Shown here piece by piece: positions 1 through 18,485 of a DNA stretch of 33,997 nt. Source of the stretch: an uncultured Eubacteriales bacterium (GTDB lineage: Bacteria; Bacillota; TC1); the NCBI GenBank assembly GCA_964389165.1, contig CAYMDI010000001.1, forward strand, positions 1 through 33,997. Direction: 5' to 3'. Within the stretch, counting starts at the first letter, position 1. Each line of letters starts with the position of its first letter. The notes under the pieces are model-generated. The model worked only from the letters and a program-made list of their open reading frames with translations, was not told the origin of the DNA and made no database searches. The position numbers and the translations under genes are program-made.

Positions 1-361
1 TGATTTCAACACGGCGCTGGCTTTCAGCTATTTCTTTGACGGCAGCAAGCTTCTGGCTAAAGCACTGAAGGAAGAGACTGCAGGCAAGGCCGGGCTGAAT
101 AAGGCCTACAGGCTTTTTGAGAAATATTTAGTGGAGATTTTAGGCGTCCTTCCCCTGACATCCCGGGAAGCTGGCTCAGAGGAAGCTGATGCAGGGGAGG
201 AGGGCCTGGCTTCCAAACTGATGGAAGTCCTCATGAAACTCAGGAACACCGCACGGAAAGAGAAGAATTTCCCTCTGAGCGACGCTATCCGAGATGAGCT
301 GGCCCTGCTCGGAATCGAGCTGGTCGATACCAAGGAAGGAAGCACATGGAAGCTCCGATAA
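1..361 (+). CDS. cysS: cysteine--tRNA ligase, C-terminal fragment (5' end lies outside the window)
   Basis: Frame 2 is open from base 2 to TAA at 359-361. The tail ...DFNTALAFSYFF...MEVLMKLRNTARKEKNFPLSDAIRDELALLGIELVDTKEGSTWKL resembles the CysRS C-terminal anticodon-binding tail. It lies upstream of mrnC, as in the Bacillus cysS-mrnC-rlmB-sigH cluster. Confidence 0.8.
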   Translation, partial: DFNTALAFSYFFDGSKLLAKALKEETAGKAGLNKAYRLFEKYLVEILGVLPLTSREAGSEEADAGEEGLASKLMEVLMKLRNTARKEKNFPLSDAIRDELALLGIELVDTKEGSTWKLR

Positions 362-756
362 AGGGGAAAGGGGGATTCCCCTCTGTCCTGGCCCTGGCTT
401 ATCTGGGAGATAGTGTCCTGGAACTGGAAATCCGGGAATATCTGATCCGCAGCGGCAAGGTAAGGCTGGATTCCCTTCATAAGGGCGCTGTGCGCTATGT
501 CAGCGCTGCTGCCCAAAGCAAGGTATATGATGCTATCGGGGAATACTTGTCGGATGAAGAGAGAGATGTTATGAAAAGCGGCAGGAACAGCAAGAAAAAA
601 ATACCCAAGAACGTAGAGATGAGGGACTATCGGAAGAGCACCGGTCTGGAAGCCCTCTATGGCTATCTTCATCTGGAAGGCCGGAAGGAGCGGATCCGGA
701 CTCTTACAGCCCAGGTAGTGCAGATTATTGAAGGAGGTCCGGTTCATGAGGATTGA
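346..756 (+). CDS. mrnC: Mini-ribonuclease 3 (23S rRNA maturation RNase III-like)
   Basis: The 136-aa product carries an RNase III-like signature, ALAYLGDSVLELEIREYL. The position after cysS is conserved. The start overlaps the cysS stop by 16 nt. Confidence 0.85.
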   Translation: MEAPIKGKGGFPSVLALAYLGDSVLELEIREYLIRSGKVRLDSLHKGAVRYVSAAAQSKVYDAIGEYLSDEERDVMKSGRNSKKKIPKNVEMRDYRKSTGLEALYGYLHLEGRKERIRTLTAQVVQIIEGGPVHED

Positions 757-4876: not shown

Positions 4877-5105
4877 TAGGTAAATCGTTGATCGGGATGA
4901 GTACCTATCCGCAGGACCTGCAGAGAGAGAAGCCTTGGCTGGAAGCTTCTTGGGAGGCGGACAGGGAAGACCACCCGGGAGAGGGAGCTGAAATCCAGTA
5001 AGCGACACGCAGGCCAGCGTTACGGGCAGGAAAGGAAGGGCCCAGTGCCCTTTGAATTAGAGTGGAACCACGGTGCTATCGTCTCTTAGATGATAGCGCC
5101 TTTTT
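4877..5105 (+). promoter_or_regulatory. T-box riboswitch leader (threonine specifier) controlling thrS
   Basis: The leader shows a GA/K-turn-like GAUGAGUA near the 5' end and an AGAGA element (about 4921-4930). A candidate specifier ACC is followed by A (4970-4973). An F-box-like GCGUUAC is present. The conserved T-box sequence AAUUAGAGUGGAACCACGG (5055-5073) overlaps the 5' arm of a terminator. Confidence 0.85.
5072..5105 (+). terminator. intrinsic terminator of the T-box leader (attenuator)
   Basis: A 12-bp stem pairs GGUGCUAUCGUC (5072-5083) with GAUGAUAGCGCC (5089-5100), including two G.U pairs. The loop is UCUUA and UUUUU follows (5101-5105). It lies 19 nt before the thrS start. Confidence 0.85.
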
Positions 5106-5123
5106 GTCTGATTGGAGGAAAAT

Positions 5124-7031
5124 ATGATGCAGGTAAAGCTTAAAGATGGAAAGGTGATTGAAGCGGCTGAAGGCAGCACCTTGATGGATCTCGCGGCAGG
5201 AATCAGCGGACGTCTGAAAAAAGAGGCGGTTGTGGCCCGGGTCAACGGCCGTCTCATGGATCTGTCCCAGCCTGTCCATGATGGGGATCAGGTGGAAATC
5301 TATACCTTGAAGGATCCGGAAGGCCTGGAAACCTATCGCCACAGCAGCGCTCACATTATGGCTGAGGCTGTGGGGGAGCTCTTCCCCGGGACGAAATTCG
5401 GAATCGGGCCGGTGATCAAAGAGGGCTTCTACTATGACTTCGATACGGACCATGTCTTCACACCGGAAGATCTCCAGAAGATTGAAGAGAAGATTGCTGA
5501 AATCGTCCAGCGCAACACCCCCTTTGTGCGAAAGGTCCTGAAACGGGAGGAGGCCCTGGAGTACTTTGGGAATCTCGGTGAGAAGTACAAGGTAGAACTC
5601 ATTTCAGACCTTCCGGAGGGAGAAGAGATCAGCATTTATGAGCAGGGCGGCTTCCTAGATCTCTGCAGAGGCCCTCATGTCCCTTCTACAGGTTATCTGA
5701 AGGCCTATAAGCTGATGAATCTTGCCGGGGCATACTGGCGGGGCAGCGAGAAGAATAAGATGCTCCAGCGGATCTATGCCACTGCTTTTCCGGACAGGAA
5801 AGAGCTGGAGGCCTATCTGACCAGGCTGGAAGAAGCCCGGAAGAGGGATCACCGGAAACTGGGGGCGGAACTGGATCTTTTTACCCTGGAAGAAGAGGGC
5901 CCTGGATTCCCACTTTTCCTGCCCAAGGGTATGGCACTGCGCAATGAGCTGGAAGACTATATGCGGGAAATGTATAAGAAGTGGGATTATGAGGAAATCA
6001 AGACCCCCATCATTCTGAACCGCAAGCTTTGGGAGCAGTCCGGGCACTGGGATCACTATAAGGAAAACATGTATTTCACAAAGATCGATGAAGGGGATTA
6101 TGCAATCAAGCCGATGAACTGCCCAGGCTGCATGCTGGTGTACAAGCATGGTCAGCATAGCTACAGGGAGCTTCCCATCCGTTATGCAGAGATGGGTCTG
6201 GTCCATCGCCATGAGAAGTCCGGGGTGCTCCATGGTCTTATGCGGGTCCGGGCCTTCACCCAGGATGATGCCCACATCTTCATGCTTTACCACCAGATCA
6301 GGGAGGAAATCCGCAAAGTCATAGAAATGGTGGATGAGGTCTACCAGACCTTTGGCTTCACCTATAGCGTGGAGCTTTCAACCCGTCCTGAAAAGGCTAT
6401 GGGTGAAGTGGAAATGTGGGATATGGCCACCCAGTCTCTTAAAGATGCCCTTGAGGAACTGAAGATGCCCTATGCCATCAACGAAGGGGATGGGGCCTTT
6501 TACGGGCCGAAAATCGATTTCCATCTTAACGATTCCATTGGGCGTACCTGGCAGTGCGGAACCATCCAGCTGGACTTCCAGATGCCTGAGAAGTTCGACC
6601 TCACTTATATCGGCGAGGACGGAGCCAAGCATCGGCCTGCCATGATCCACCGGGCAATCTATGGCTCCATCGAACGGTTTATCGGAATCCTCATTGAGCA
6701 TTACGGAGGGGCATTCCCTCTGTGGCTTGCGCCAGTGCAGGCCAATATCCTGCCTGTTGCAGAAGTGCATCAGGATTATGCCTGGGAAGCTGCAGCCCGT
6801 TTGAAAAAGGCCGGAATCCGCGTCCAGGTAGATGACCGGAATGAGAAACTGGGATACCGTATCCGGGAAAGCCAGGTGAAGAAGATCCCTTATACCTTCG
6901 TGGTAGGAGATCGGGAAGCGGAGGAAGGAACCGTATCTGTACGCAAGCGGGGAGAAGGGGATCTGGGCAGCAAGAGCCTGGAGGAAGTCCTGGCTCTCCT
7001 GGCTGACGAGATCCGCAGCAAGGGGAAATAA
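5124..7031 (+). CDS. thrS: threonine--tRNA ligase
   Basis: Full-length ThrRS is present, with a TGS domain (VKLKDGKVIE), an editing domain (HSSAHIMA) and a class II core (RVRAFTQDDAHIF, FYGPKIDF). I moved the start from the TTG at 5112 to ATG 5124, which follows GGAGG (5114-5118). Confidence 0.95.
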   Translation: MMQVKLKDGKVIEAAEGSTLMDLAAGISGRLKKEAVVARVNGRLMDLSQPVHDGDQVEIYTLKDPEGLETYRHSSAHIMAEAVGELFPGTKFGIGPVIKEGFYYDFDTDHVFTPEDLQKIEEKIAEIVQRNTPFVRKVLKREEALEYFGNLGEKYKVELISDLPEGEEISIYEQGGFLDLCRGPHVPSTGYLKAYKLMNLAGAYWRGSEKNKMLQRIYATAFPDRKELEAYLTRLEEARKRDHRKLGAELDLFTLEEEGPGFPLFLPKGMALRNELEDYMREMYKKWDYEEIKTPIILNRKLWEQSGHWDHYKENMYFTKIDEGDYAIKPMNCPGCMLVYKHGQHSYRELPIRYAEMGLVHRHEKSGVLHGLMRVRAFTQDDAHIFMLYHQIREEIRKVIEMVDEVYQTFGFTYSVELSTRPEKAMGEVEMWDMATQSLKDALEELKMPYAINEGDGAFYGPKIDFHLNDSIGRTWQCGTIQLDFQMPEKFDLTYIGEDGAKHRPAMIHRAIYGSIERFIGILIEHYGGAFPLWLAPVQANILPVAEVHQDYAWEAAARLKKAGIRVQVDDRNEKLGYRIRESQVKKIPYTFVVGDREAEEGTVSVRKRGEGDLGSKSLEEVLALLADEIRSKGK

Positions 7032-7111: not shown

Positions 7112-7948
7112 ATGTGGTATAAGATTGAAGAGATCGAAGCGAAATACGGTCTTACCAAGTTCTCTATCTATGCCCTGATCACGCAGGAACCGGAGCTGCG
7201 GAAGCATATCAAGGCTCTGGAAGGAGTCCTTCAGATTAATGAAGAGGGGATTGGGGTGCTGCTGAAGCATGCCTCCAGGAAGACGGATGATTCCCCCCCT
7301 ACCTATGCGGATAACAATACGATTATTTTTTCAAGAGATAAGAAAGAGGAAGCGGAAGCTCCTGTGGAGCAGGAGGATAAGACAGGGGAAGAAGAGGATC
7401 TCTTCGGCAGCGTCTTCCAGAGCACAGGCTCCTTCTTTGATGAAAAGGAAGAGTCCCTGTCTGCTAATGATGCAGGGCATGAAGAGTTCTTCACCTCCAT
7501 GGGTGTGCGGGCTGATATGGCTGCTGCTGCAGCAGTGGCGGCTGCAGTTCCTGAGGCTGAGGCAGAGCCGGAAGTCCCCCAGGGGGCGGATGAATTTACT
7601 GCAGAGGACTTGGTCTTCCAGGAGGCTCCTGAGCCTCAGGATGATATGGCGGAAGCAGATGAAGTGAACCCTGCTGTTTTCGACGATATTGCCGCAACAG
7701 ATGATTTCTTCAGCGACTATGCTCAGGAAGAGGAAGATTACCTGGCAGAGCCGGAAACCGTGACAGAATTCGAAGCGGCTTCTGATGATGAGTTCACCAT
7801 GGAGGGCTACATTAAGGCCCTGAAAGAGAAGATGATCATTCAGAACGAGCAGATCAGAGCCCTTTCAGCCTATCTGGACGTCAGCCGCAAAATGCTGCTG
7901 CAGGATGAGAAGATTGTAGGGATCCTTGAAGGGATGTACCGGAAATAG
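7112..7948 (+). CDS. hypothetical protein: N-terminal HTH-like segment, long acidic low-complexity tract, C-terminal helical segment
   Basis: GGGAGG lies 7 nt before ATG 7112. The N-terminus YKIEEIEAKYGLTKFSIYALI resembles excisionase/MerR-type HTH_17 helices. The central ~170 aa are very D/E/A-rich. The tail KALKEKMIIQNEQIRALSAYLDVSRKMLLQDEK looks coiled-coil-like. I recognise no family. Confidence 0.6.
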   Translation: MWYKIEEIEAKYGLTKFSIYALITQEPELRKHIKALEGVLQINEEGIGVLLKHASRKTDDSPPTYADNNTIIFSRDKKEEAEAPVEQEDKTGEEEDLFGSVFQSTGSFFDEKEESLSANDAGHEEFFTSMGVRADMAAAAAVAAAVPEAEAEPEVPQGADEFTAEDLVFQEAPEPQDDMAEADEVNPAVFDDIAATDDFFSDYAQEEEDYLAEPETVTEFEAASDDEFTMEGYIKALKEKMIIQNEQIRALSAYLDVSRKMLLQDEKIVGILEGMYRK

Positions 7949-7964
7949 GATCTGATATGAACGT

Positions 7965-7998
7965 AAAAAAGGACCGGGTTAACCGGTTCTTTTTTTTC
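7965..7998 (+). terminator. intrinsic terminator after the acidic protein gene
   Basis: AAAAAAGGACCGGGUUAACCGGUUCUUUUUUUU forms an imperfect GC stem flanked by an A-run and a U-run. Confidence 0.6.
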
Positions 7999-8000
7999 TA

Positions 8001-8029
8001 TTGACAGCCTTTGGCTTTTCCAATACAAT
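8001..8029 (+). promoter_or_regulatory. sigma-A type promoter of the membrane-protein gene
   Basis: TTGACA (8001-8006), a 17-nt spacer, then TACAAT (8024-8029). Confidence 0.6.
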
Positions 8030-8095
8030 GTCTCCAAGAGTGTATGTGAAAGGAGCGGGTAACCTGATTGCAAAAATTGAAGGGAGTTGTTAAAC

Positions 8096-9295
8096 ATGGA
8101 CACACTATGGACCCCTATTTTTGCCTTCATGGTTTTCGCAGTGGCCTTTGGCCTTGGGGATATTGTGGCAAATCGGACAAAAAGCCTGATATCCTCTATC
8201 ATTGTGGGCAGCAGTATCTTTCTTGTAGGATATGTGACTAAAATCATTCCTACGGATGCTCTGGCCAGTACGGGATTGGTAACCTTTTTCGGCGCAGTAG
8301 GCCTGGCCTTGCTGGTGGCGAATCTGGGAACCTTGATGAACCTCGGCCAGCTGATGAAGGAATGGAAGACGGTCCTGATCGGACTAGCCGGATTGGTTGG
8401 TCTGGCTATTGTAGGCTTCACCATCGGGGTGGCCCTCTTTGGTGAGACTGTCGCACTGACAGGAACCGTCCCGATTTCCGGCGGCCTTGTAGCAGCTATG
8501 CTGGTAGCCAATGCAGCGAAGGAGGCCGGGCGGGCGGATATGGCTGCCTTTGCCACTTTGGTCCTGGCTTTCCAGATGTTTGTAGGCCTCCCAGTGAGCG
8601 CATTCCTTCTGAAAAAGGAAGCGGCAAGGCTGCTTGGGCTGAAGGCAGGAGGAAAACTGGAGACGGCTTCCATGGCAGCCAAAGAATATAATCTCAGGCT
8701 TCTTCCCAAAATGCCAGACTGGGCGCTATCTCCCTCTGTGGTCCTGGCCAAGCTGGCCATTGTCCTGGTTGTAGGGAAATTCCTCTCTGACCTGACTATT
8801 GTCAATGGACAGCCTATTGTCCATCCGTATGTAGCCTATCTCCTCTTGGGGATTGTGGCAACAGAAATTGGCTTCCTGGAAAAGCAATCCTTCAACAAGG
8901 CTCAGTCTGCAGGCTTTATGATGGCGGGGATCATGATTCTTCTCCCGGGAAATTTTGCCAGCGTTACCTTGAGCAGCCTGGCCCAGATGGTGGTTCCCCT
9001 TGTAGTCCTGCTCCTTCTCGGGGCCGCAGGCATCGCTCTCTTTTCCTTTATTGCTGGGAAGCTCCTCCGTGTATCCCCCTATGTGGCTATTTCCATCGGC
9101 CTCACTGCTCTTCTGGCTTATCCTGCTACGCAGATTGTAACTGAAGAAGTGGTCCGTTCCCTGGATGTAGGAGAAGAGGACAGGAAATTCGTGATGGATC
9201 AGCTTCTCCCCAAACAGCTTGTAGGAGGGTTTGTGACTGTAACGGTAGCCTCTGTCGTATTTGCAGGCATCATCGTGCCTCTGATTCCGTTCTAA
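8096..9295 (+). CDS. polytopic integral membrane protein, putative transporter of unrecognised family
   Basis: The ~399-aa product is almost entirely hydrophobic with roughly 10-12 predicted helices. AGGGAG (8081-8086) lies 9 nt before ATG 8096. I cannot assign a family by eye. Confidence 0.7.
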   Translation: MDTLWTPIFAFMVFAVAFGLGDIVANRTKSLISSIIVGSSIFLVGYVTKIIPTDALASTGLVTFFGAVGLALLVANLGTLMNLGQLMKEWKTVLIGLAGLVGLAIVGFTIGVALFGETVALTGTVPISGGLVAAMLVANAAKEAGRADMAAFATLVLAFQMFVGLPVSAFLLKKEAARLLGLKAGGKLETASMAAKEYNLRLLPKMPDWALSPSVVLAKLAIVLVVGKFLSDLTIVNGQPIVHPYVAYLLLGIVATEIGFLEKQSFNKAQSAGFMMAGIMILLPGNFASVTLSSLAQMVVPLVVLLLLGAAGIALFSFIAGKLLRVSPYVAISIGLTALLAYPATQIVTEEVVRSLDVGEEDRKFVMDQLLPKQLVGGFVTVTVASVVFAGIIVPLIPF

Positions 9296-10830: not shown

Positions 10831-11562
10831 ATGAAAATAATCCTCTGTGAGGATCATCCTGATTTCAGAGCCCGGAATCTGAAGGTGGTTCAGGATTTTC
10901 TGAAGGCTGAAGGGCTTTCAGGGGAAATCTCGGTTTTTTCCACATATCAGGAAACCATGGATTATCTGAAGTCCCTGGATCATTATGATGACTGTCTGTA
11001 CATTCTGGATATCGGCCTTCGTGGGGAAAAGAACGGCTTGCATCTTGGTCGGGATATCCGGGACCTGGATGGATACCAGGGGGAGCTGATCTATGTAACA
11101 GGGTATAGCCATCAGATGGGGAATGTAATCCGCTATAAGCTTAGAATCCTGGATTTTATCGATAAAAATATGCGTCTGGAGCAGGAACTTGCAGAGGACC
11201 TGAAAATCTTTCTTCGCCTTTACAGGGAAAAGCAGGGAAATGGGATATTGTCCTATAAGGAAGGAAAGGAAATCCATCAGATCCAGATAAGGGATATCCT
11301 CTGGATTGAAACGGAAAAGTCGCAGAAGAGGATACTGATTCATACAGCCAGAGAGGAATTCTCCGTTCCTCTTTCATTAAAGGAAGTCCGTGAAAAACTA
11401 CCGGATGATTTCCAGCAGATCCATCGCTGCACCTTGGTTAGCAGGCGTCATGCTTCGGGACTATCTCCTGACCAGGAAGGGCTCTATCTGGAAATGGATG
11501 ATGGCAGCCGGAAGATTGTGGCAAAACGCAGTGAAAGGGATGTGCGGAAATGGTTTATCTGA
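10831..11562 (+). CDS. LytTR-family response regulator (AgrA/VirR/ComE-like)
   Basis: The receiver domain (MKIILCEDHP..., LYILDIGL acceptor Asp region) is followed by a LytTR DNA-binding domain (IRDILWIETEKSQKRILIHT..., FQQIHRCTLVSRRH). Confidence 0.85.
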   Translation: MKIILCEDHPDFRARNLKVVQDFLKAEGLSGEISVFSTYQETMDYLKSLDHYDDCLYILDIGLRGEKNGLHLGRDIRDLDGYQGELIYVTGYSHQMGNVIRYKLRILDFIDKNMRLEQELAEDLKIFLRLYREKQGNGILSYKEGKEIHQIQIRDILWIETEKSQKRILIHTAREEFSVPLSLKEVREKLPDDFQQIHRCTLVSRRHASGLSPDQEGLYLEMDDGSRKIVAKRSERDVRKWFI

Positions 11563-12848
11563 TTCTGACAACCCTCCTCCATCCCTGGCTGATCCAGCGT
11601 TATGGCAGAGAGCCAGTGCGGATTGACTTCCTCAGCATCAGTCTGATCCTTCTGCTGATTCCAGCTAAGGTATTCCTGCATGCTTTCCTGGCTGACAGTT
11701 TCACATATTTTCTTGTGGCCTGGCTTTCTGTCTATCTGCAGACAGTAGTGCTATATAGGAGATTCTCTTCCAAGGATGTGGAACTGTCCTTCTTTCTGAT
11801 GTTGTGTAATGCCTTATTCTACTATATATCTGCTGGCATCCTCCTCTTCCTTACCCAAGGGGTCTCCATTCAGGATGTGGTGAATCTGGAACTGATCGGA
11901 CAGAATAACCCCCTGCAGATCAGCATGACAATCCTCCTCCTTGTCCTTTTCGGAGTCTTCCGGAATCAGATTCATCTTGAATTCCGGGAAGGTGAGGGGG
12001 AAAAGCAGCGCTTTCAAAGCATATTCTTCATTCTTACCATGAATCTTATCATCCTGGTGATGTATAACATGGAGATGCCAGAAGGGGCAAAGCTGATTCT
12101 TTTTGTCATTCTCAATCTTGCTGTAATCACCTTCTATATCCGCAATCGCAATCTGTGGCATGAGACTGCGAAAGATAAGGCGGCTATTCAGGAGCGGAAC
12201 CGCACTATTCAGGAGCTTCACAGCTATGTTCAGACCATTGAGACCCTGACAGACCGTTTTCAGGAGTTCCGGCATGATATGGCCAATATGATGGTTGGTT
12301 TAGGTTTGGACGAGAGCAGGATCCAACGGACCATAGAACTGGTGGAACATGATCTGGCAGGACAGTCAGACTATGGGAACCTCCTGGCGCTGCGTCAGAT
12401 CCACCATCCATCTCTGAAATCCCTTCTTTACTATTATGTGATGAGAGGGAAAGAGGCAGGGCTGAAGATCACATTGAATGTTCTTGGGGATGTGACCTCC
12501 TATCCCTGGCCTGAAGTCCCTGTATCCAGGGTTATGGGAATACTCTGTGAAAATGCGCTGGAAGCGGCACAGGAATCAGAAGATAAGATTCTGGATATCT
12601 TTATTGAAGAACGGAGAGAGAGTCTTACCATTACCATCGGCAACTCCTATCAGGGGAGCATCCAGGATATCCCGGTGCTTTTTGAAAAAGGCTATTCCAC
12701 CAGAATCGGGGAAAGAGGCAGGGGGCTGTATAACCTCCGGGGAATCATTGAGGAGAACCCTGGCTTTCATCTCAAGACACTCCTTCAGGGAAATCTCTTC
12801 ATACAGGACCTGACCTTGAAGAAGGAAGCGGAAGAAGAGCAGGAATAG
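11550..12848 (+). CDS. AgrC/HPK10-like membrane sensor histidine kinase (GHKL ATPase)
   Basis: The N-terminal ~200 aa contain about 6 hydrophobic helices. There is an H-box FRHDMANMM, an N-box CENALEAA and a G-box GYSTRIGERGRGLYNL. The start overlaps the RR stop by 13 nt. Confidence 0.85.
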   Translation: MVYLILTTLLHPWLIQRYGREPVRIDFLSISLILLLIPAKVFLHAFLADSFTYFLVAWLSVYLQTVVLYRRFSSKDVELSFFLMLCNALFYYISAGILLFLTQGVSIQDVVNLELIGQNNPLQISMTILLLVLFGVFRNQIHLEFREGEGEKQRFQSIFFILTMNLIILVMYNMEMPEGAKLILFVILNLAVITFYIRNRNLWHETAKDKAAIQERNRTIQELHSYVQTIETLTDRFQEFRHDMANMMVGLGLDESRIQRTIELVEHDLAGQSDYGNLLALRQIHHPSLKSLLYYYVMRGKEAGLKITLNVLGDVTSYPWPEVPVSRVMGILCENALEAAQESEDKILDIFIEERRESLTITIGNSYQGSIQDIPVLFEKGYSTRIGERGRGLYNLRGIIEENPGFHLKTLLQGNLFIQDLTLKKEAEEEQE

Positions 12849-12918: not shown

Positions 12919-13977
12919 TTATTTCAAAGTGAGCCGCACATCCTGCAAACTGCCATTACGGCTGATTTTCAGGGTAATCCTGTCTCCTGGCTTCTGTCGG
13001 AAAAGGACGCTGCGGAGCTGTGCTCCGGTACGGATGTCCTCGCCTCCGATCTGAAGGATGATATCATTGGCCCGGAGGCCCGCAATATCTGCCGGTGAAT
13101 TGGCAGCGACCGCACCGATAAGGACCCCTTCGGGCACATCATAGTATTCTGCCATGGATGCGCTAATATCCACCAGGCCGGATACCCCCAGGTAAGGCCG
13201 GGTGACTTTGCCCGTCGTGATGATCTCTTCTGCAAGAGGCTTCACTGTATTGATCGGGATGGCAAAGCCCAGACCTTCTACCCCGGCAATGGATATTTTC
13301 GCGCTGTTGATGCCTATGAGCTGTCCCAGGATGTTTACCAGAGCGCCGCCGCTGTTTCCCGGATTGATGGCCGCATCTGTCTGAAGGACGGTCATCAGAA
13401 CCTGGACCCCTTGGGCACTGGTGATAGTCAGGTCCCGGGAAAGGGCGCTGATCACACCCACTGTTACGGTGTTTGCAAAGTCAGTGCTGAGTGGAGAGCC
13501 GATGGCAATGGCTGTCTGACCTACCTTCAGGGTGGAGGAGTCCCCCAGTTCCATTGCGGTAAGGCGGTTTTTGTCTTCTAACTGGATGATGGCGATATCT
13601 GCATCGGGATCGCCTCCGATGCGCTGGGCTTTGCTGACCCTGCCATCGGCAAGGCTCACGGAAAGCTCCCCGTCATCCTGGACTACATGATAGTTGGTGA
13701 CGACATAACCCAGGGCGCTGTCAATGATGACTCCAGAGCCAAGGGCTGTGCCGGTGATGCTGTCTCTGGAAATCTGGACAACCGAGGGTATTGTTTTGGA
13801 AACAATATCCGGAAGAGAGACATTCTCACCCAGACGGATTTCGTTTACAGCACTGCTGCCTTCCTCCGGAGCGCTTTCCTCCATAGAGGCCAGGCCTGTG
13901 TAAAGGAGGATCGCCAGTAAAGCGCCCACCATTGCTGTAAGCAGCGTCTTCAGGATTTCAGTCCAGGGAGGTTTCAT
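12919..13977 (-). CDS. htrA: HtrA/DegP-family serine protease with N-terminal membrane anchor and C-terminal PDZ domain
   Basis: The catalytic triad context is present: TNYHVV, DADIAIIQL and GNSGGALVN. A PDZ-like tail follows. I moved the start to ATG 13977 (MKPPW...), 6 nt after AAGGAG. Confidence 0.9.
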   Translation of the reverse strand: MKPPWTEILKTLLTAMVGALLAILLYTGLASMEESAPEEGSSAVNEIRLGENVSLPDIVSKTIPSVVQISRDSITGTALGSGVIIDSALGYVVTNYHVVQDDGELSVSLADGRVSKAQRIGGDPDADIAIIQLEDKNRLTAMELGDSSTLKVGQTAIAIGSPLSTDFANTVTVGVISALSRDLTITSAQGVQVLMTVLQTDAAINPGNSGGALVNILGQLIGINSAKISIAGVEGLGFAIPINTVKPLAEEIITTGKVTRPYLGVSGLVDISASMAEYYDVPEGVLIGAVAANSPADIAGLRANDIILQIGGEDIRTGAQLRSVLFRQKPGDRITLKISRNGSLQDVRLTLK

Positions 13978-13998: not shown

Positions 13999-14913
13999 TC
14001 AGAGATTGCTGATGTATTCATAGGCCATCTGGCCTGCCACGGCTCCATCTCCCACAGCTGTGGAGACCTGCCGCAGATTCTTCGCCACCACATCTCCACA
14101 GGCAAAAAGCCCGGGGACGTTGGTTTCCATCTTGTCGCTGACGATAATCTGATCCGCATCGTTTGTATTGAGGATATTCTTCACAAAACTGCTGTTCATA
14201 ATCTGGCCCACGGCTACGAAAACCCCATCCATTGCAATCGTCTGCTGCCGGCCTTCCCGGAGGTTCTCCAACACCAGCTCAGTAACCTTTGTTTCCCCCT
14301 TGATTTCAAGGGGAATGGTATCCATCAGCACATGGAGGTTCGGGTAGTCCGGCAGTTTGTCAACCAGAATCTGGCTGCCCCGGAACTGGTCTCTTCTGTG
14401 AATGAGATAGACCTCGCTGGCAATGCTGGTGAGATAGATAGCATCTTCCAGGGCTGTATTGCCGCCACCCACCACGGCGACCTTCTTCCCTTTAAAAAAG
14501 AAGCCGTCACAGATGGCGCAGTAGGAGACTCCCTTACCCTGGTATTCCCGCTCCCCGGGTACGCCGAGATTCCGGGGATAGCCCCCCGTAGCAATGATCA
14601 CAGCCTTGGCTTCCATAATGCCTGTGGAAATCTCCACCTGGAACTGCTTGTCTTTCTTGGAAACCTTTTTCGCCGTATCATTGATGAGCTGGAAATCTGG
14701 GAAGCCGCTGATCTGCCCATACATGGCATTGGCCAGGTCAAAACCCAATACACCCTGTGCAAAACCAGGGTAGTTGTCAATCTGTTCTGTTTTCAGAAGC
14801 TGGCCCCCTGGGGCTCCTTGCTCGATCATCGCCACTGAAAGGCCGCTTCTCAAGGCATAAAGGGCAGCTGTCATTCCTGAGGGGCCTCCCCCGATCACAC
14901 ATACATCAATCAT
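13999..14913 (-). CDS. trxB: thioredoxin-disulfide reductase
   Basis: The product has an FAD-binding site GGGPSGMTAA, the redox-active CAICDG motif, and NADPH motifs GGGNTALEDA and HRRDQFR. AAGGAG lies 7 nt before ATG 14913. Confidence 0.95.
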   Translation of the reverse strand: MIDVCVIGGGPSGMTAALYALRSGLSVAMIEQGAPGGQLLKTEQIDNYPGFAQGVLGFDLANAMYGQISGFPDFQLINDTAKKVSKKDKQFQVEISTGIMEAKAVIIATGGYPRNLGVPGEREYQGKGVSYCAICDGFFFKGKKVAVVGGGNTALEDAIYLTSIASEVYLIHRRDQFRGSQILVDKLPDYPNLHVLMDTIPLEIKGETKVTELVLENLREGRQQTIAMDGVFVAVGQIMNSSFVKNILNTNDADQIIVSDKMETNVPGLFACGDVVAKNLRQVSTAVGDGAVAGQMAYEYISNL

Positions 14914-14940: not shown

Positions 14941-16323
14941 TTATCTTAACATTTCCCAGATCTTGTTTTTCGTGATGAAATCACTGGTTCCCGGGTTCTG
15001 CGCCTCCAGCCCTTCCAAGAGCTTCACAGCCTGTACGTAGAGAGCCTCCTCCAGCCGGATTTTTGTAATCTCACAGCTTAGGGCATAGGGGGAGAGAAGG
15101 CCTTCCCCATAGTGGATGTTATTGGCATGGCAGCCGCCGGAGCAATGGAATCGGGCCCAGCAGGAGCGGCAGGAGTCCTTGCTGTAGATGCTGGCATCCT
15201 GGAAATCCTGGGAGATGTCCTTGCGGATACCCTCCTCCATGATGTTCCCCAGTCGGTACTCCGGATTTTCTATCAGCTGATGGCAGGGGTAGATATCTCC
15301 TGAGGGGGTAACGGCCAGATACTCCGTTCCTGCACCGCAGGCGGTAATCCGCTTATAGATGCAGGGGCCCCCTTGGAGCTGGATGTTGAAATGGAAGAAA
15401 TCCAGGGGATCTCCCTCCCTGTACCACTTCAGGTAACGCTGTCCAAGCTCTTCATAGGCGGACCGGATGGCAGGAAGGTCCTCCCAGGTGATGTCCCCTC
15501 CGATAACAGGCTCCATGGAAAGGTGCCGGAAGCCAAGATCCCGCAGGGCTTCCACATCTTCGTAAAAGTCCAGGTTCTTTCCTGTATAGGTGCCCCGGGC
15601 TACATAATCCTCGCTTTTATCCTTGAAGGACAGATAATTCCGCACTACCGTATCGTAGCTGCCCTCGCCGGATTTGGTGTAGCGGTTGGCATCGTGGACT
15701 TCCTTCCGGCCATCAATGCTCAGGACAGTCCCCACCTGATGTTCCTCAAGGTAACGGCCTGTCTCCTCGTCCAGGAGAAGGCCATTGGTGGTCATGGACC
15801 ACTTGATGGCCTTTCCGGCTTCCCGGGCCTTTTCTTCCCCATAGGGGATGAGCTCCCGGATCAGAGGCAGGTTCAGGAGAGGTTCCCCGCCGAAAAAGTC
15901 CACCTCCACCAGCCTTCGGCCCTGGCTCTCTGACAGCAGGCGGTCAATGGCTCTCTTCCCCACCTCCGGGGACATAATGGCTTCTGCCCCTTTATAGTTT
16001 CCTCCAGAAGCGAAGCAATAGGGGCAGGCCAGATTGCAGACATGAGCGACATTAAGGCAGAGGGACTTCAGATTATAATTTATATTCCGGGGAAGGGCCC
16101 CATCATCCGGGGTGCCCAGGCGGCCCTCCTCGATGAGGGCGCGGATTTCCGCCAGGGCTTCCAGTTCCTCCTGCTCCTTAAAATCTTCAGGAGCCTGCCC
16201 CTGGAGCAGGGCCTCCAGGACCTGGGCGCTCTGGGGATCGAAGAGGTGAAGGGAGCCTGAATTCACATCCAGGACTAGGTTCATATCCCCTTTCCGGATA
16301 ATATGGACATCGTGTCTGTTCAT
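14941..16323 (-). CDS. scfB: radical SAM/SPASM thioether-forming maturase of the SCIFF peptide (ScfB/CteB-like)
   Basis: The radical SAM motif CNLACPYC (CxxxCxxC) is present. The Cys-rich SPASM C-terminus includes CGAGTEYLAVTPSGDIYPC and CRSCWARFHCSGGC. I moved the start from 16494 to ATG 16323 (MNRHDVHIIRKGDMNLVLDVNSGSLHLFD), 5 nt after GGAGG. The resulting 460 aa is the typical size for this family. Confidence 0.9.
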   Translation of the reverse strand: MNRHDVHIIRKGDMNLVLDVNSGSLHLFDPQSAQVLEALLQGQAPEDFKEQEELEALAEIRALIEEGRLGTPDDGALPRNINYNLKSLCLNVAHVCNLACPYCFASGGNYKGAEAIMSPEVGKRAIDRLLSESQGRRLVEVDFFGGEPLLNLPLIRELIPYGEEKAREAGKAIKWSMTTNGLLLDEETGRYLEEHQVGTVLSIDGRKEVHDANRYTKSGEGSYDTVVRNYLSFKDKSEDYVARGTYTGKNLDFYEDVEALRDLGFRHLSMEPVIGGDITWEDLPAIRSAYEELGQRYLKWYREGDPLDFFHFNIQLQGGPCIYKRITACGAGTEYLAVTPSGDIYPCHQLIENPEYRLGNIMEEGIRKDISQDFQDASIYSKDSCRSCWARFHCSGGCHANNIHYGEGLLSPYALSCEITKIRLEEALYVQAVKLLEGLEAQNPGTSDFITKNKIWEMLR

Positions 16324-16336
16324 TTGTTCCTCCAAG

Positions 16337-16360
16337 AAAAAAGGCCCCGCATCCGGGACC
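16337..16360 (-). terminator. small intrinsic terminator/attenuator between scfA and scfB
   Basis: On the minus-strand RNA, GGUCCCG-GAUG-CGGGGCC forms 7 bp (one U.G) and is followed by UUUUUU. The structure sits in the 49-nt gap between the peptide stop and the maturase start. On the plus strand the same stem has a C/A mismatch. Confidence 0.55.
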
Positions 16361-16372
16361 TTCCGATAGGGC

Positions 16373-16519
16373 TTATTGGTGTAGGCAAAGCTGATTCGCC
16401 ACAGTGCAGGAGGTCTTGCAGGCGGACTGGCAAGCTGACTGGCAGTTTCCGCAGCCTCCTGTTTCCTTGGTTCCCTGCAGCCCCGGACTGGCAAGTGTAA
16501 GGATGTGTTTGTTATTCAT
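16373..16519 (-). CDS. scfA: SCIFF (six cysteines in forty-five residues) RiPP precursor peptide, 48 aa; not in the supplied ORF track
   Basis: The minus strand reads GTTAGGAGGGTTGAACC-ATG (16519). Translation gives MNNKHILTLASPGLQGTKETGGCGNCQSACQSACKTSCTVANQLCLHQ, ending at TAA (16373-16375). There are six Cys residues. The core GGCG.CQ..CQSACKTSCTV.NQ.C matches the SCIFF consensus as I recall it. The gene lies immediately upstream of the matching rSAM maturase. Confidence 0.9.
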   Translation of the reverse strand: MNNKHILTLASPGLQGTKETGGCGNCQSACQSACKTSCTVANQLCLHQ

Positions 16520-16544
16520 GGTTCAACCCTCCTAACTTGCTCTG

Positions 16545-16553
16545 ATTATATCA
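16545..16553 (-). promoter_or_regulatory. extended -10 promoter element for scfA
   Basis: The minus strand reads TGATATAAT about 25 nt upstream of the scfA RBS. The -35 region is weak (TGTATT). Confidence 0.5.
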
Positions 16554-16640: not shown

Positions 16641-18485
16641 TTGTGCGGTTATGTGGGCTTCATGTGCAGCGAGGTGAAAGAGAAAGAACCAGTCATCAGA
16701 GAAATGATGGACCGGATCCGGCACCGAGGTCCTGACAGTGCCGGCTTTTTTGCTGACCAGCGGGGAGCTCTGGGTTTCCGTCGCTTATCCATTATCGGGC
16801 TGGAAGATGGAGACCAGCCCATTTTCAATGAAGACAAGAGCCTGGTCCTGGTGTTTAACGGGGAGATTTACAATTACAGCAGCCTTAAGGAAGAGCTGAT
16901 TGCCAAGGGCCATCGCTTTTACACCCATGCGGATTCAGAGGTTCTGATCCATCTCTATGAAGAAGAAGGGGCAGCAATGGTCCCCCGGCTCCGGGGGATG
17001 TTTTCATTTGCCATTTATGATAAGGAACAGGGATCTTTGTTCCTGGCCCGGGACTATTTCGGCATCAAGCCGCTCTATTATGGGTTTTCCGGAGAGGCCT
17101 TTCTCTTCGGCTCGGAAATCAAGAGCTTCCTGGCCTTTCCAGGTTTTCAGAAGGAGCTGAATCCTGAGGCCCTGGAGAGCTACCTGAGCTTCCAGTACAG
17201 CAGCCTCCCCGAAACCTTCTTCAAGGGGGTCTATCAGCTGCGTCCAGGATGTACCCTGAGCTGGAAGGAGGGGAAGGCAGAGATCAGCCCCTATTTCCAG
17301 CCCTCATTCGAGCCCCGGGAAGAATGGGAACTTACCGAACTGGTGGATGAGATTGCAGAGGTCTTTGAAGCCTCGGTCATGGTCCATAAAATCAGCGATG
17401 TGGAGGTGGGCAGCTTCCTTTCCAGCGGGATCGATTCCAGCTATGCGGCAACTGTTTTTCAGGGAGATAAGACCTTCACTGTAGGTTTTGAAAATGCGGG
17501 ATATAACGAAATAAGCTATGCAAAAGAGCTTTCCGGAATCATCGGCATCCACAATGAGAGCAAAGTCATCGGAGATGATGAATACTGGGATAGCCTTTCT
17601 GCTGTACAGTATCATATGGATGAACCCCTTGCTGATCCTTCAGCTGTGGCCCTGTATTTTGTCTCTCAGCTGGCCAGCAAGCATGTGAAGGTGGTCCTTT
17701 CAGGAGAAGGGGCTGATGAGCTCTTCGGAGGGTACAATATCTACAGAGAGCCCTTGGATACTGCAGGCTATCGCAGGCTCCCCCGCTTCCTCCGGAGAGG
17801 GGTGGGGGCCCTGGCCAGGCTGCTTCCTGAGGTGAAAGGCAAATCCTTTCTCATCCGTGGGGGGCAGGATCTGGAAGAGCGGTATATCGGGAATGCCCGG
17901 ATCTTTTCGGATAAAGAGCGCAAAGCCCTGCTGAAAAACAGGACTAAAGCCCCGGCCACCAGGGAAGTCACGGCCCCCTGGTATGAGGGAGGGAAGGGTC
18001 TGGATGATACAACCAGGATGCAGCTTGTAGATATGAACACCTGGCTCATCGGAGATATCCTCCTGAAGGCTGACAAGATGAGCATGGCTCACAGCCTGGA
18101 GCTGCGGGTGCCTTTCCTGGACAAAGAGGTCTTTGCCCTGGCCAGGACCATTCCCCTGCGGTATAAGGTCAACAGGCATAACACAAAATATGCTCTGCGC
18201 CTGGCTGCAAGACGGGTCATTCCCAAAGCTGTGGCAGATAAGCGGAAGCTGGGCTTCCCTGTGCCCATCCGGGTCTGGCTCCGGGAGGAGAAATATCTTA
18301 GGAAGATCCGGGAGGCCTTCAGCCGGCCCATCGCCCGGGAGCTCTTTCAGGAAACCATGCTGGAGAAGCTTCTTACAGACCACTATAATGGCAAGAGGGA
18401 TCACAGCCGCAAGATCTGGACCATCTATATGTTCCTGGTCTGGCATGAGGTTTTCTTTGAAAAAGAGGAGGGGAATAGGAAATGA
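16641..18485 (+). CDS. asnB: asparagine synthase (glutamine-hydrolysing)
   Basis: The Ntn-glutaminase N-terminus requires Cys as residue 2, so I set the start at TTG 16641 (M-CGYVGF), 8 nt after AAGGAGG (16626-16632). The listed GTG is at 16635. Other motifs are RGPDSAG, NGEIYNY and the PP-loop SFLSSGIDSS. Confidence 0.9.
   Translation: MCGYVGFMCSEVKEKEPVIREMMDRIRHRGPDSAGFFADQRGALGFRRLSIIGLEDGDQPIFNEDKSLVLVFNGEIYNYSSLKEELIAKGHRFYTHADSEVLIHLYEEEGAAMVPRLRGMFSFAIYDKEQGSLFLARDYFGIKPLYYGFSGEAFLFGSEIKSFLAFPGFQKELNPEALESYLSFQYSSLPETFFKGVYQLRPGCTLSWKEGKAEISPYFQPSFEPREEWELTELVDEIAEVFEASVMVHKISDVEVGSFLSSGIDSSYAATVFQGDKTFTVGFENAGYNEISYAKELSGIIGIHNESKVIGDDEYWDSLSAVQYHMDEPLADPSAVALYFVSQLASKHVKVVLSGEGADELFGGYNIYREPLDTAGYRRLPRFLRRGVGALARLLPEVKGKSFLIRGGQDLEERYIGNARIFSDKERKALLKNRTKAPATREVTAPWYEGGKGLDDTTRMQLVDMNTWLIGDILLKADKMSMAHSLELRVPFLDKEVFALARTIPLRYKVNRHNTKYALRLAARRVIPKAVADKRKLGFPVPIRVWLREEKYLRKIREAFSRPIARELFQETMLEKLLTDHYNGKRDHSRKIWTIYMFLVWHEVFFEKEEGNRK

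Follow-up and report, generated by a model that had tools for sequence, protein, structure and literature searches.

The DNA analysed here, hereafter the window, is a stretch of 33,997 nucleotides that carries on its minus strand a 48-codon gene, scfA, followed by scfB, which encodes a radical-SAM (rSAM)/SPASM enzyme (Table 1). The scfA open reading frame (ORF) occupies window coordinates 16373-16519, with its ATG at 16519 and a TAA closing at 16373, and its product, checked against the sequence, is MNNKHILTLASPGLQGTKETGGCGNCQSACQSACKTSCTVANQLCLHQ, a peptide of 48 residues with six cysteines (C23, C26, C30, C34, C38 and C45). The scfA stop codon and the scfB ATG lie on the same strand, 49 nt apart. 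In the original prediction these elements had been read by hand; the AGGAGGG motif followed by the ATG at 16519, the terminal TAA, the 48-residue translation with its six Cys and the 49 nt from the peptide stop to the rSAM/SPASM gene (ATG at 16323) are all exactly as they stand in the sequence. The boundary between leader and core in ScfA was placed from the 18-residue leader of CteA, with an offset of +2 (PMC6231123). A probable scfA promoter with an extended -10 element, TGATATAAT, was read from the sequence upstream of the ribosome-binding site (RBS). Its counterpart in L001, a related locus described below, is TGCTATAAT, which is found at a nearly equal distance 5' of the scfA RBS within flanks that have diverged. 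The two-hexamer promoter scan of the window did not flag the scfA promoter, because a good -35 element is lacking.

Table 1. Features of the scfA-scfB locus and its downstream genes, in window coordinates
Feature	Position	Strand	Remarks
htrA, Do-family serine protease with PDZ domain	12919..13977	-	21 nt 3' of trxB
trxB, thioredoxin-disulfide reductase	13999..14913	-	27 nt 3' of scfB; TIGR01292, 354.3 bits (cut-off 343)
scfB, 460-aa radical-SAM/SPASM SCIFF maturase	14941..16323	-	ATG at 16323
Artefactual 57-codon 5' extension of the maturase ORF	16324..16494	-	From TTG 16494; non-coding in the maturase frame
scfB RBS, GGAGG	16329..16333	-	5 nt 5' of ATG 16323; identical GGAGG in L001
Terminator-like hairpin, probable leaky attenuator	16334..16364	-	Stem-loop 16364-16339; 11 pairs, loop GAUG
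scfA, SCIFF ranthipeptide precursor	16373..16519	-	Leader ~M1-T20, core ~G21-Q48
scfA RBS, AGGAGGG	16527..16533	-	7 nt 5' of ATG; AGGAGGA at the same place in L001
Probable scfA promoter, extended -10 element	16545..16553	-	Putative

The close spacing of scfB, trxB and htrA (Table 1) and the lack of a terminator-like site in the scfB-htrA interval suggest that the three genes are probably co-transcribed, with htrA as the last gene of a unit that is delineated by gene spacing. The trxB gene occupies the same position in L001-L007 and L026, and the layout in which asnB diverges from scfA-scfB-trxB is retained in L001. A tblastn search found none of trxB, htrA and asnB in the examined DNA of 17 loci with ScfB identities of 35-47%, several of which end at or shortly after the scfB homologue. 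The three genes were on this ground rejected as general SCIFF partners, and the linkage to trxB looks like synteny of the window clade and not like a defining part of the system.

The window as a whole is a housekeeping chromosomal stretch. It comprises thyX, a SpoU methylase gene, a sigma factor, a dipeptidase, a T-box leader with thrS, an M20 amidohydrolase, a LytTR/AgrC-like two-component pair, htrA, trxB, scfB, scfA, the divergent asnB, a TDE2712-family gene, a Dabb gene, polA, fpg, rsmA, lgt, pcrA, ligA and gatAB, and it contains no rRNA or tRNA gene. No agrB or agrD that might accompany the LytTR/AgrC-like pair was recognised among the neighbouring ORFs scanned, and the close relative L004 lacks the pair itself.

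Family assignment of ScfA and ScfB

SCIFF peptides and their ScfB maturases have been a described family since 2011. The earlier assignment of the small peptide to this family is borne out by the TIGR03973 model, against which ScfA scores 69.7 bits (cut-off of 50), and the PF13165 model gives 70.3 bits (cut-off of 27), both with an E-value of ~1e-19 and coverage of residues 4-45. The six cysteines fall within ~45 residues and follow the core pattern CxxCQxxCQSACKTSCTVxNQxC, and the precursor gene lies less than 500 bp from a same-strand rSAM/SPASM maturase gene, across the 49-nt spacer. A hand-built SCIFF profile matches the scfA ORF only, with no second SCIFF copy in the whole window, and a search of the PDB with the ScfA peptide returned only chance-level matches to ferredoxin motifs (E ≥ 0.034). 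The small ORF is a real gene, encoding a SCIFF six-cysteine precursor of the textbook kind.

ScfA is 83% identical to WP_088370301.1, a protein already annotated in RefSeq as 'six-cysteine ranthipeptide SCIFF' in the named, complete genome of the endosymbiont 'TC1' of Trimyema compressum. Both peptides comprise 48 residues, share the core GGCGNCQSACQSACKTSCTVANQLC and fall in the same 90% cluster of the collection's own clustering, while the eight substitutions that separate them are all located in the leader or in the last three residues. The window pair also resembles CteA/CteB (thermocellin) from Clostridium thermocellum, where the precursor gene is likewise directly upstream of the maturase gene. 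CteA and ScfA have the invariant SCIFF core CQxxCQSACKTSCTVxNQxC in common, CteB displays the same CX3CX2C and SPASM cysteines as ScfB, and the N-terminal region of ScfB can be aligned to the RRE of CteB. In contrast, CteA and ScfA differ in leader sequence, and ScfA numbering is shifted by +2 (C23 versus Cys21). Tte1186a/Tte1186 from Caldanaerobacter subterraneus belongs to the same family and was the first SCIFF pair to be characterised in vitro. Tte1186a presents a single thioether connecting the fourth Cys (Cys32) to the Thr five residues on (PMC8326336), equivalent to C34 and T39 in ScfA, a residue correspondence that follows from the family alignment and the literature. Freyrasin PapA/PapB from Paenibacillus polymyxa and QhpD involve related rSAM/SPASM enzymes that form non-alpha thioethers. 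PapB differs in making six Cys-X3-Asp S-C-beta links on another precursor, and QhpD in having a protein subunit as its substrate. Asp is absent from the ScfA peptide, which thus lacks the Cys-X3-Asp repeats of a PapB-type precursor.

TIGR03974 ('thioether cross-link-forming SCIFF peptide maturase') is the only maturase model whose curated cut-off is exceeded by ScfB (479.1 bits against 425), in agreement with the enzyme class first proposed for it. Four rival rSAM models fail, namely those for anaerobic sulfatase maturase (TIGR03942; 123.3 bits, cut-off of 349.45), the 'not_ScfB' orphan exception (NF040492; 421.5 bits, cut-off of 855), PapB (NF047865; 273.2 bits, cut-off of 340) and QhpD (TIGR03906; 245 bits, cut-off of 453). 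In Pfam, ScfB is above the thresholds of Radical_SAM, Fer4_12 and SPASM (PF04055, 56.4 bits; PF13186, 31.9 bits against a cut-off of 21.5). Its CX3CX2C motif, C96-N-L-A-C100-P-Y-C103, aligns to CNLRCKYC of CteB, and each of the SPASM-region cysteines C321, C329, C347, C385, C388, C394, C398 and C417 stands opposite a Cys of CteB. The cluster cysteines, comprising those of CX3CX2C and the eight C-terminal ones, are invariant between ScfB and its L001 homologue. The best solved structure for ScfB is that of CteB (PDB codes 5WGG and 5WHY; E of 5e-118 and 398 bits over residues 12-433), while the next best, anSME, is distant (E of 9e-18). Residues 12 to ~85 of ScfB align with the RRE-forming part of CteB 5WGG (PMC6231123); no match of ScfB to an RRE or PqqD model was obtained.

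Coding selection and gene calls

A scan of a genome collection for relatives returned L001 alone, owing to overly specific peptide patterns, and a metagenome scan provided 18 further loci with ScfB identities of 29-47%. L001 originates from a low-GC MAG (36% GC, versus 53% in the window) and its ScfB is 64% identical to that of the window. It encodes a 48-residue SCIFF in the equivalent position, with an scfA identity of 71% at the nucleotide and 79% at the amino-acid level. Codon position 3 accounts for 31 of the 42 nucleotide differences between the two scfA genes; the change is purely synonymous in 26 codons and alters the amino acid in 10, and the other two frames of scfA contain stops in L001. 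The third-position bias suggests that the scfA ORF is under coding selection, and purifying selection appears to have acted on it across the divide between 53% and 36% GC.

A SCIFF ORF is located immediately upstream of the scfB homologue in all 15 of the further loci that have upstream flank, and several of these ORFs use GTG or TTG starts. Seventeen core positions are invariant in 13 diverse SCIFFs, including the six Cys and the segment Q-S-A-C-K-T-S-C-T-V-x-N-Q-x-C; the thioether donor C34 and the candidate acceptors T36 and T39 are invariant in the same set. The window clade deviates only in the leader, in the change of E25 to N/S and at position 29, which is Ala and becomes Ser in more distant SCIFFs. 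Position 25 is occupied by Asn in the window ScfA and by Glu in 10 of 10 sampled SCIFFs outside the clade. The scfA gene recurs without any change in at least seven contigs (L002-L007 and L026), which come from different samples.

The mechanical ORF list contains, in the maturase frame, an ORF at 14941..16494 of the minus strand, which starts with TTG, encodes 517 aa and overlaps most of scfA. Were this the true gene, as a TTG-initiated maturase, the small overlapping ORF would be due to chance, a reading that can point to the existence of the 517-aa ORF and to the one public gene call that chose it. However, the TIGR03974 and CteB alignments start at residues 6-12 of the 460-aa form, equivalent to residues 63-69 of the 517-aa form. 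The stretch 16324..16494 contains scfA in another frame, the hairpin with its U-run and the scfB RBS with its GGAGG-ATG start, and scfB homologues begin at the equivalent ATG. Furthermore, stop codons interrupt the extension frame in L001, where the scfA frame is kept with its third-position-biased change, and the SCIFF HMM matches the small peptide with an E-value of 1e-19. The chance-ORF reading is effectively refuted, and the 517-aa TTG form of the maturase is an artefact, as the original prediction held from the sequence alone. That ScfB is instead a member of another rSAM/SPASM subfamily with a different substrate (orphan ScfB-like, PapB-type, QhpD-type or anaerobic sulfatase maturase) is highly improbable. 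Homologous families do score strongly, as the sub-threshold values for NF040492 (421), NF047865 (273) and TIGR03906 (245 bits) attest, but only the TIGR03974 cut-off is exceeded, and the enzyme gene is preceded, at a distance of 49 nt, by that of a SCIFF precursor; every radical-SAM gene situated less than 500 bp from a SCIFF gene was scored as ScfB (PMC5300114). What is known of the organism comes from metagenome assemblies alone, which would leave room for the locus to be a silent or decaying, unexpressed remnant. This is exceedingly improbable, however, given that scfA and scfB are intact and preceded by strong RBSs, that scfA is the same in all the contigs mentioned above, that the substitution pattern indicates purifying selection and that all catalytic cysteines are conserved. 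The window locus is thus best described as a standard scfA-scfB pair encoding a SCIFF ranthipeptide system and, very probably, as part of the housekeeping chromosome of an uncultured Firmicutes-like bacterium.

The over-extension of the maturase had also been proposed to mask scfA. This holds for the ENA contig L026, where the maturase is called at 517 aa (P0014) and the intact scfA is uncalled, but it is not the sole cause, since in the public calls for L006 and L007 an identical scfA ORF is skipped next to a maturase rightly called at 460 aa. In L002-L005 scfA and scfB are both called correctly, and the exact ScfA peptide, tagged PF13165, is already known from public gene calls. NCBI is among the sources listed for all the proteins that neighbour scfA, while the exact ScfA peptide is listed for Logan and ENA only, which fits scfA being missing from the calls on the window's contig. 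Missed annotation of SCIFF genes is a weakness already described by the builders of the models (PMC5300114).

A terminator-like hairpin between scfA and scfB

The spacer between the two genes contains a stem-loop that begins 8 nt after the scfA stop codon, and the subsequent U-run, UUUUUUCUU (16342-16334), abuts the scfB RBS. The window hairpin folds at -20.9 kcal/mol with a z-score of -1.7, a stability reached by 11 of 200 shuffles and therefore not significant alone. The terminator rule devised for this work is also satisfied by 31 of 200 shuffles of the window spacer, and the supplied promoter/terminator scan, with its stricter tail rule, did not flag the hairpin. The case for a terminator thus depends on the comparison across spacers. 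A hairpin followed by a T-run is present in 14 of 17 scfA-scfB spacers from diverse SCIFF loci, against ~1.3 expected from shuffles, with stems that are non-homologous, and the other three spacers gave no match. The 17 spacers represent ~13 independent lineages, 10 of which have a hairpin match. The excess over expectation supports the reading of the hairpin as a leaky intrinsic terminator that would leave the precursor in excess over the maturase.

Under this interpretation, most transcripts would end after scfA, while a minority would read into scfB and, in the window clade, into trxB and htrA. Read-through at a low rate would then leave the enzyme far outnumbered by its precursor. Leaky terminators that follow the precursor gene are known from other RiPP and bacteriocin operons, such as nisA-nisB and sboA-albA. 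There a stem-loop directly follows a short, strongly expressed precursor gene and precedes the genes for modification; the window has the same order, although for the scfA-scfB hairpin the function is deduced from sequence only. Among the papers searched, none describes a terminator in SCIFF loci. The leaky terminator after scfA may constitute a control point common to the whole family and not described so far, by which the ratio of precursor to maturase is set high.

Predicted thioether, biological role and significance

The Cys32-Thr37 link found in vitro in Tte1186a and CteA was taken for a sactionine. Co-expression and isotope labelling led to the re-assignment of the CteA link from S-C-alpha to S-C-gamma of Thr, and in vivo it was mapped to Cys32-Thr34, versus Thr37 in vitro, so that the acceptor is disputed; SCIFFs have been moved to the ranthipeptides (PMC8326336, PMC8172795). 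As the first cysteine is Cys21 in CteA and C23 in ScfA, Cys32 corresponds to C34, Thr34 to T36 and Thr37 to T39. The C34-to-T39 thioether suggested in the original prediction accordingly retains its donor, which is supported by homology to CteA, while its acceptor may be either T36 or T39 and the link is now considered to be S-C-gamma (PMC8326336, PMC8172795). A sactipeptide-type S-C-alpha thioether in ScfA is unlikely by homology, the CteA link being to C-gamma.

In CteB the N-terminal RRE binds the CteA leader as a β-strand, and the enzyme contains a radical-SAM cluster and two SPASM clusters, of which Aux I displays an open site (PMC6231123, PMC8326336). The steps predicted for the window pair are modelled on the work on CteA/CteB and Tte1186a/Tte1186, homologues at ~40-50% identity. 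The RRE-like N-terminal domain of ScfB, as suggested by the CteB alignment, would bind the ~20-residue leader (KHILTL...) as an added β-strand. The [4Fe-4S] cluster of the CX3CX2C motif (C96/C100/C103) would cleave SAM to yield a 5'-deoxyadenosyl radical, which would take hydrogen from the side chain of a Thr within the invariant CKTSCT segment. C34, with its sulfur probably bound at auxiliary cluster I, would then form the thioether to the C-gamma of T36 or T39, with a predicted net mass change of -2 Da.

The biological role of the mature peptide had been regarded as unknown, a view that is at variance with a reported quorum-sensing/regulatory phenotype (Chen et al. 2020, as relayed in PMC8326336 and PMC8102284). 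According to these accounts, disruption of the pair in Clostridium beijerinckii is accompanied by down-regulation of sporulation genes and up-regulation of agr, and the phenotype in solventogenic clostridia is read as quorum-sensing or regulatory. This experimental evidence, the only one of its kind, points to a regulatory or quorum-sensing-type effect and not to antibiosis. A pangenome preprint describes ranthipeptide clusters as conserved among the clostridial orders, no species having more than one (10.1101/2025.02.12.637840).

A main role independent of the thioether, in which the six Cys bind a metal or Fe-S cluster or act as a thiol-redox element and the trxB linkage reflects this function, is very unlikely. 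The segment GGCGNCQSAC weakly resembles 4Fe-4S ferredoxin motifs, but at an E-value of 0.034 the similarity is not significant and stays at chance level. In CteA and Tte1186a a role has been assigned to a single Cys out of six (PMC8326336); the obligate pairing with a maturase argues, however, that the modification matters. Likewise, the tight spacing of scfB-trxB-htrA, in a layout conserved at 64% ScfB identity, is countered by the 17 loci at 35-47% identity in whose examined DNA the trxB linkage is unseen. A related scheme retains the modification and makes scfA, the hairpin and scfB-trxB-htrA of the window clade a single attenuator-controlled operon, the modified Cys-rich peptide serving as a thiol-redox/envelope-stress signal coupled to TrxB and HtrA instead of a secreted quorum signal. 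It is put forward as a speculation that we consider unlikely to be correct.

As a standard SCIFF ranthipeptide system, the scfA-scfB locus is ordinary, a typical member of a known family with curated models. As a discovery the locus matters little, for the SCIFF/ScfB family already has its curated models in NCBIfam and Pfam, a crystal structure and chemistry established in vitro. Its practical value is that of an annotation fix, as small-ORF calls seeded with TIGR03973 would prevent both skipped scfA genes and mis-extended maturases. The only point that is mildly new is the hairpin, which is kept in position and not in sequence, and which may offer a handle on how the levels of precursor and enzyme are set.

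Additional features of the window

The sole Rfam match across the whole window is a T-box leader, which lies immediately 5' of the threonine--tRNA ligase ORF, an ordinary arrangement. Among the four large ORFs without a family match, the one on the minus strand at 7870-8805 is overlapped on the opposite strand by both the 7112-7948 and the 8087-9295 ORFs, so that in each of these two overlaps one ORF or both are probably spurious.

Coordinates of the features discussed in this part
Feature	Location	Strand	Evidence
T-box leader (RF00230)	window 4879-5089	+	Rfam, 104.4 bits; gathering score 93
Threonine--tRNA ligase ORF	window 5112-7031	+	TIGR00418, 747 bits
Large ORF	window 106-747	-	no NCBIfam or Pfam match
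Large ORF	window 7112-7948	+	no NCBIfam or Pfam match
Large ORF	window 7870-8805	-	no NCBIfam or Pfam match
Large ORF	window 8087-9295	+	no NCBIfam or Pfam match
LytTR response regulator	window 10831-11562	+	well under Agr equivalog cut-offs
AgrC-like histidine kinase	window 11550-12848	+	well under Agr equivalog cut-offs
Uncalled 48-aa scfA ORF	L006 873-1019		identical sequence
Uncalled 48-aa scfA ORF	L007 341-487		identical sequence
Uncalled 48-aa scfA ORF	L026 120-266		identical sequence

Neighbours of the scfA unit

The TDE2712-asnB/scfA-scfB-trxB order is common to the window and the syntenic MAG locus L001 (JAKEGG010000009.1), with proteins 62-72% identical. The start of the TDE2712-family gene overlaps the asnB stop at window 18482-18485 (ATGA), and the two genes are also adjacent in L001, which together suggest that they form a conserved unit of two genes, oriented divergently to scfA. 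The GC content of L001 is 36%, against 53% in the window, revealing a large compositional shift inside one syntenic clade. The phylum label of this MAG, "Fusobacteria bacterium", looks doubtful, since the nearest named SCIFF belongs to a ciliate endosymbiont of Firmicutes type.

The LytTR/AgrC-like pair lies in convergent orientation to the scfA-scfB-trxB-htrA unit, facing its end, and the neighbouring ORFs that were scanned included no recognisable agrB- or agrD-like gene. A link to the reported SCIFF-agr connection is tempting; none is claimed here because the pair is variable: the close relative L004 lacks it and has the M20 amidohydrolase straight after htrA.

scfA sequence and gene calls in relatives

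Codon 25 of scfA (window 16445-16447) encodes Asn or Ser in the window's clade, in contrast with Glu (CG-E-CQ) in all 10 of the more distant SCIFFs sampled, and is the only clade-specific change adjoining the invariant cysteines in this sample. An ORF identical to the window's 48-aa scfA is present yet uncalled on three public contigs, in one of which (L026) the maturase was wrongly called from TTG as a 517-aa protein, while scfA and scfB are both correctly called on four further contigs (L002-L005). At several distant loci (L008, L009, L010, L011, L013 and L018), the SCIFF ORF, taken as that upstream of the ScfB match, has an apparent GTG or TTG start rather than ATG, a further reason why gene callers might miss SCIFF genes.
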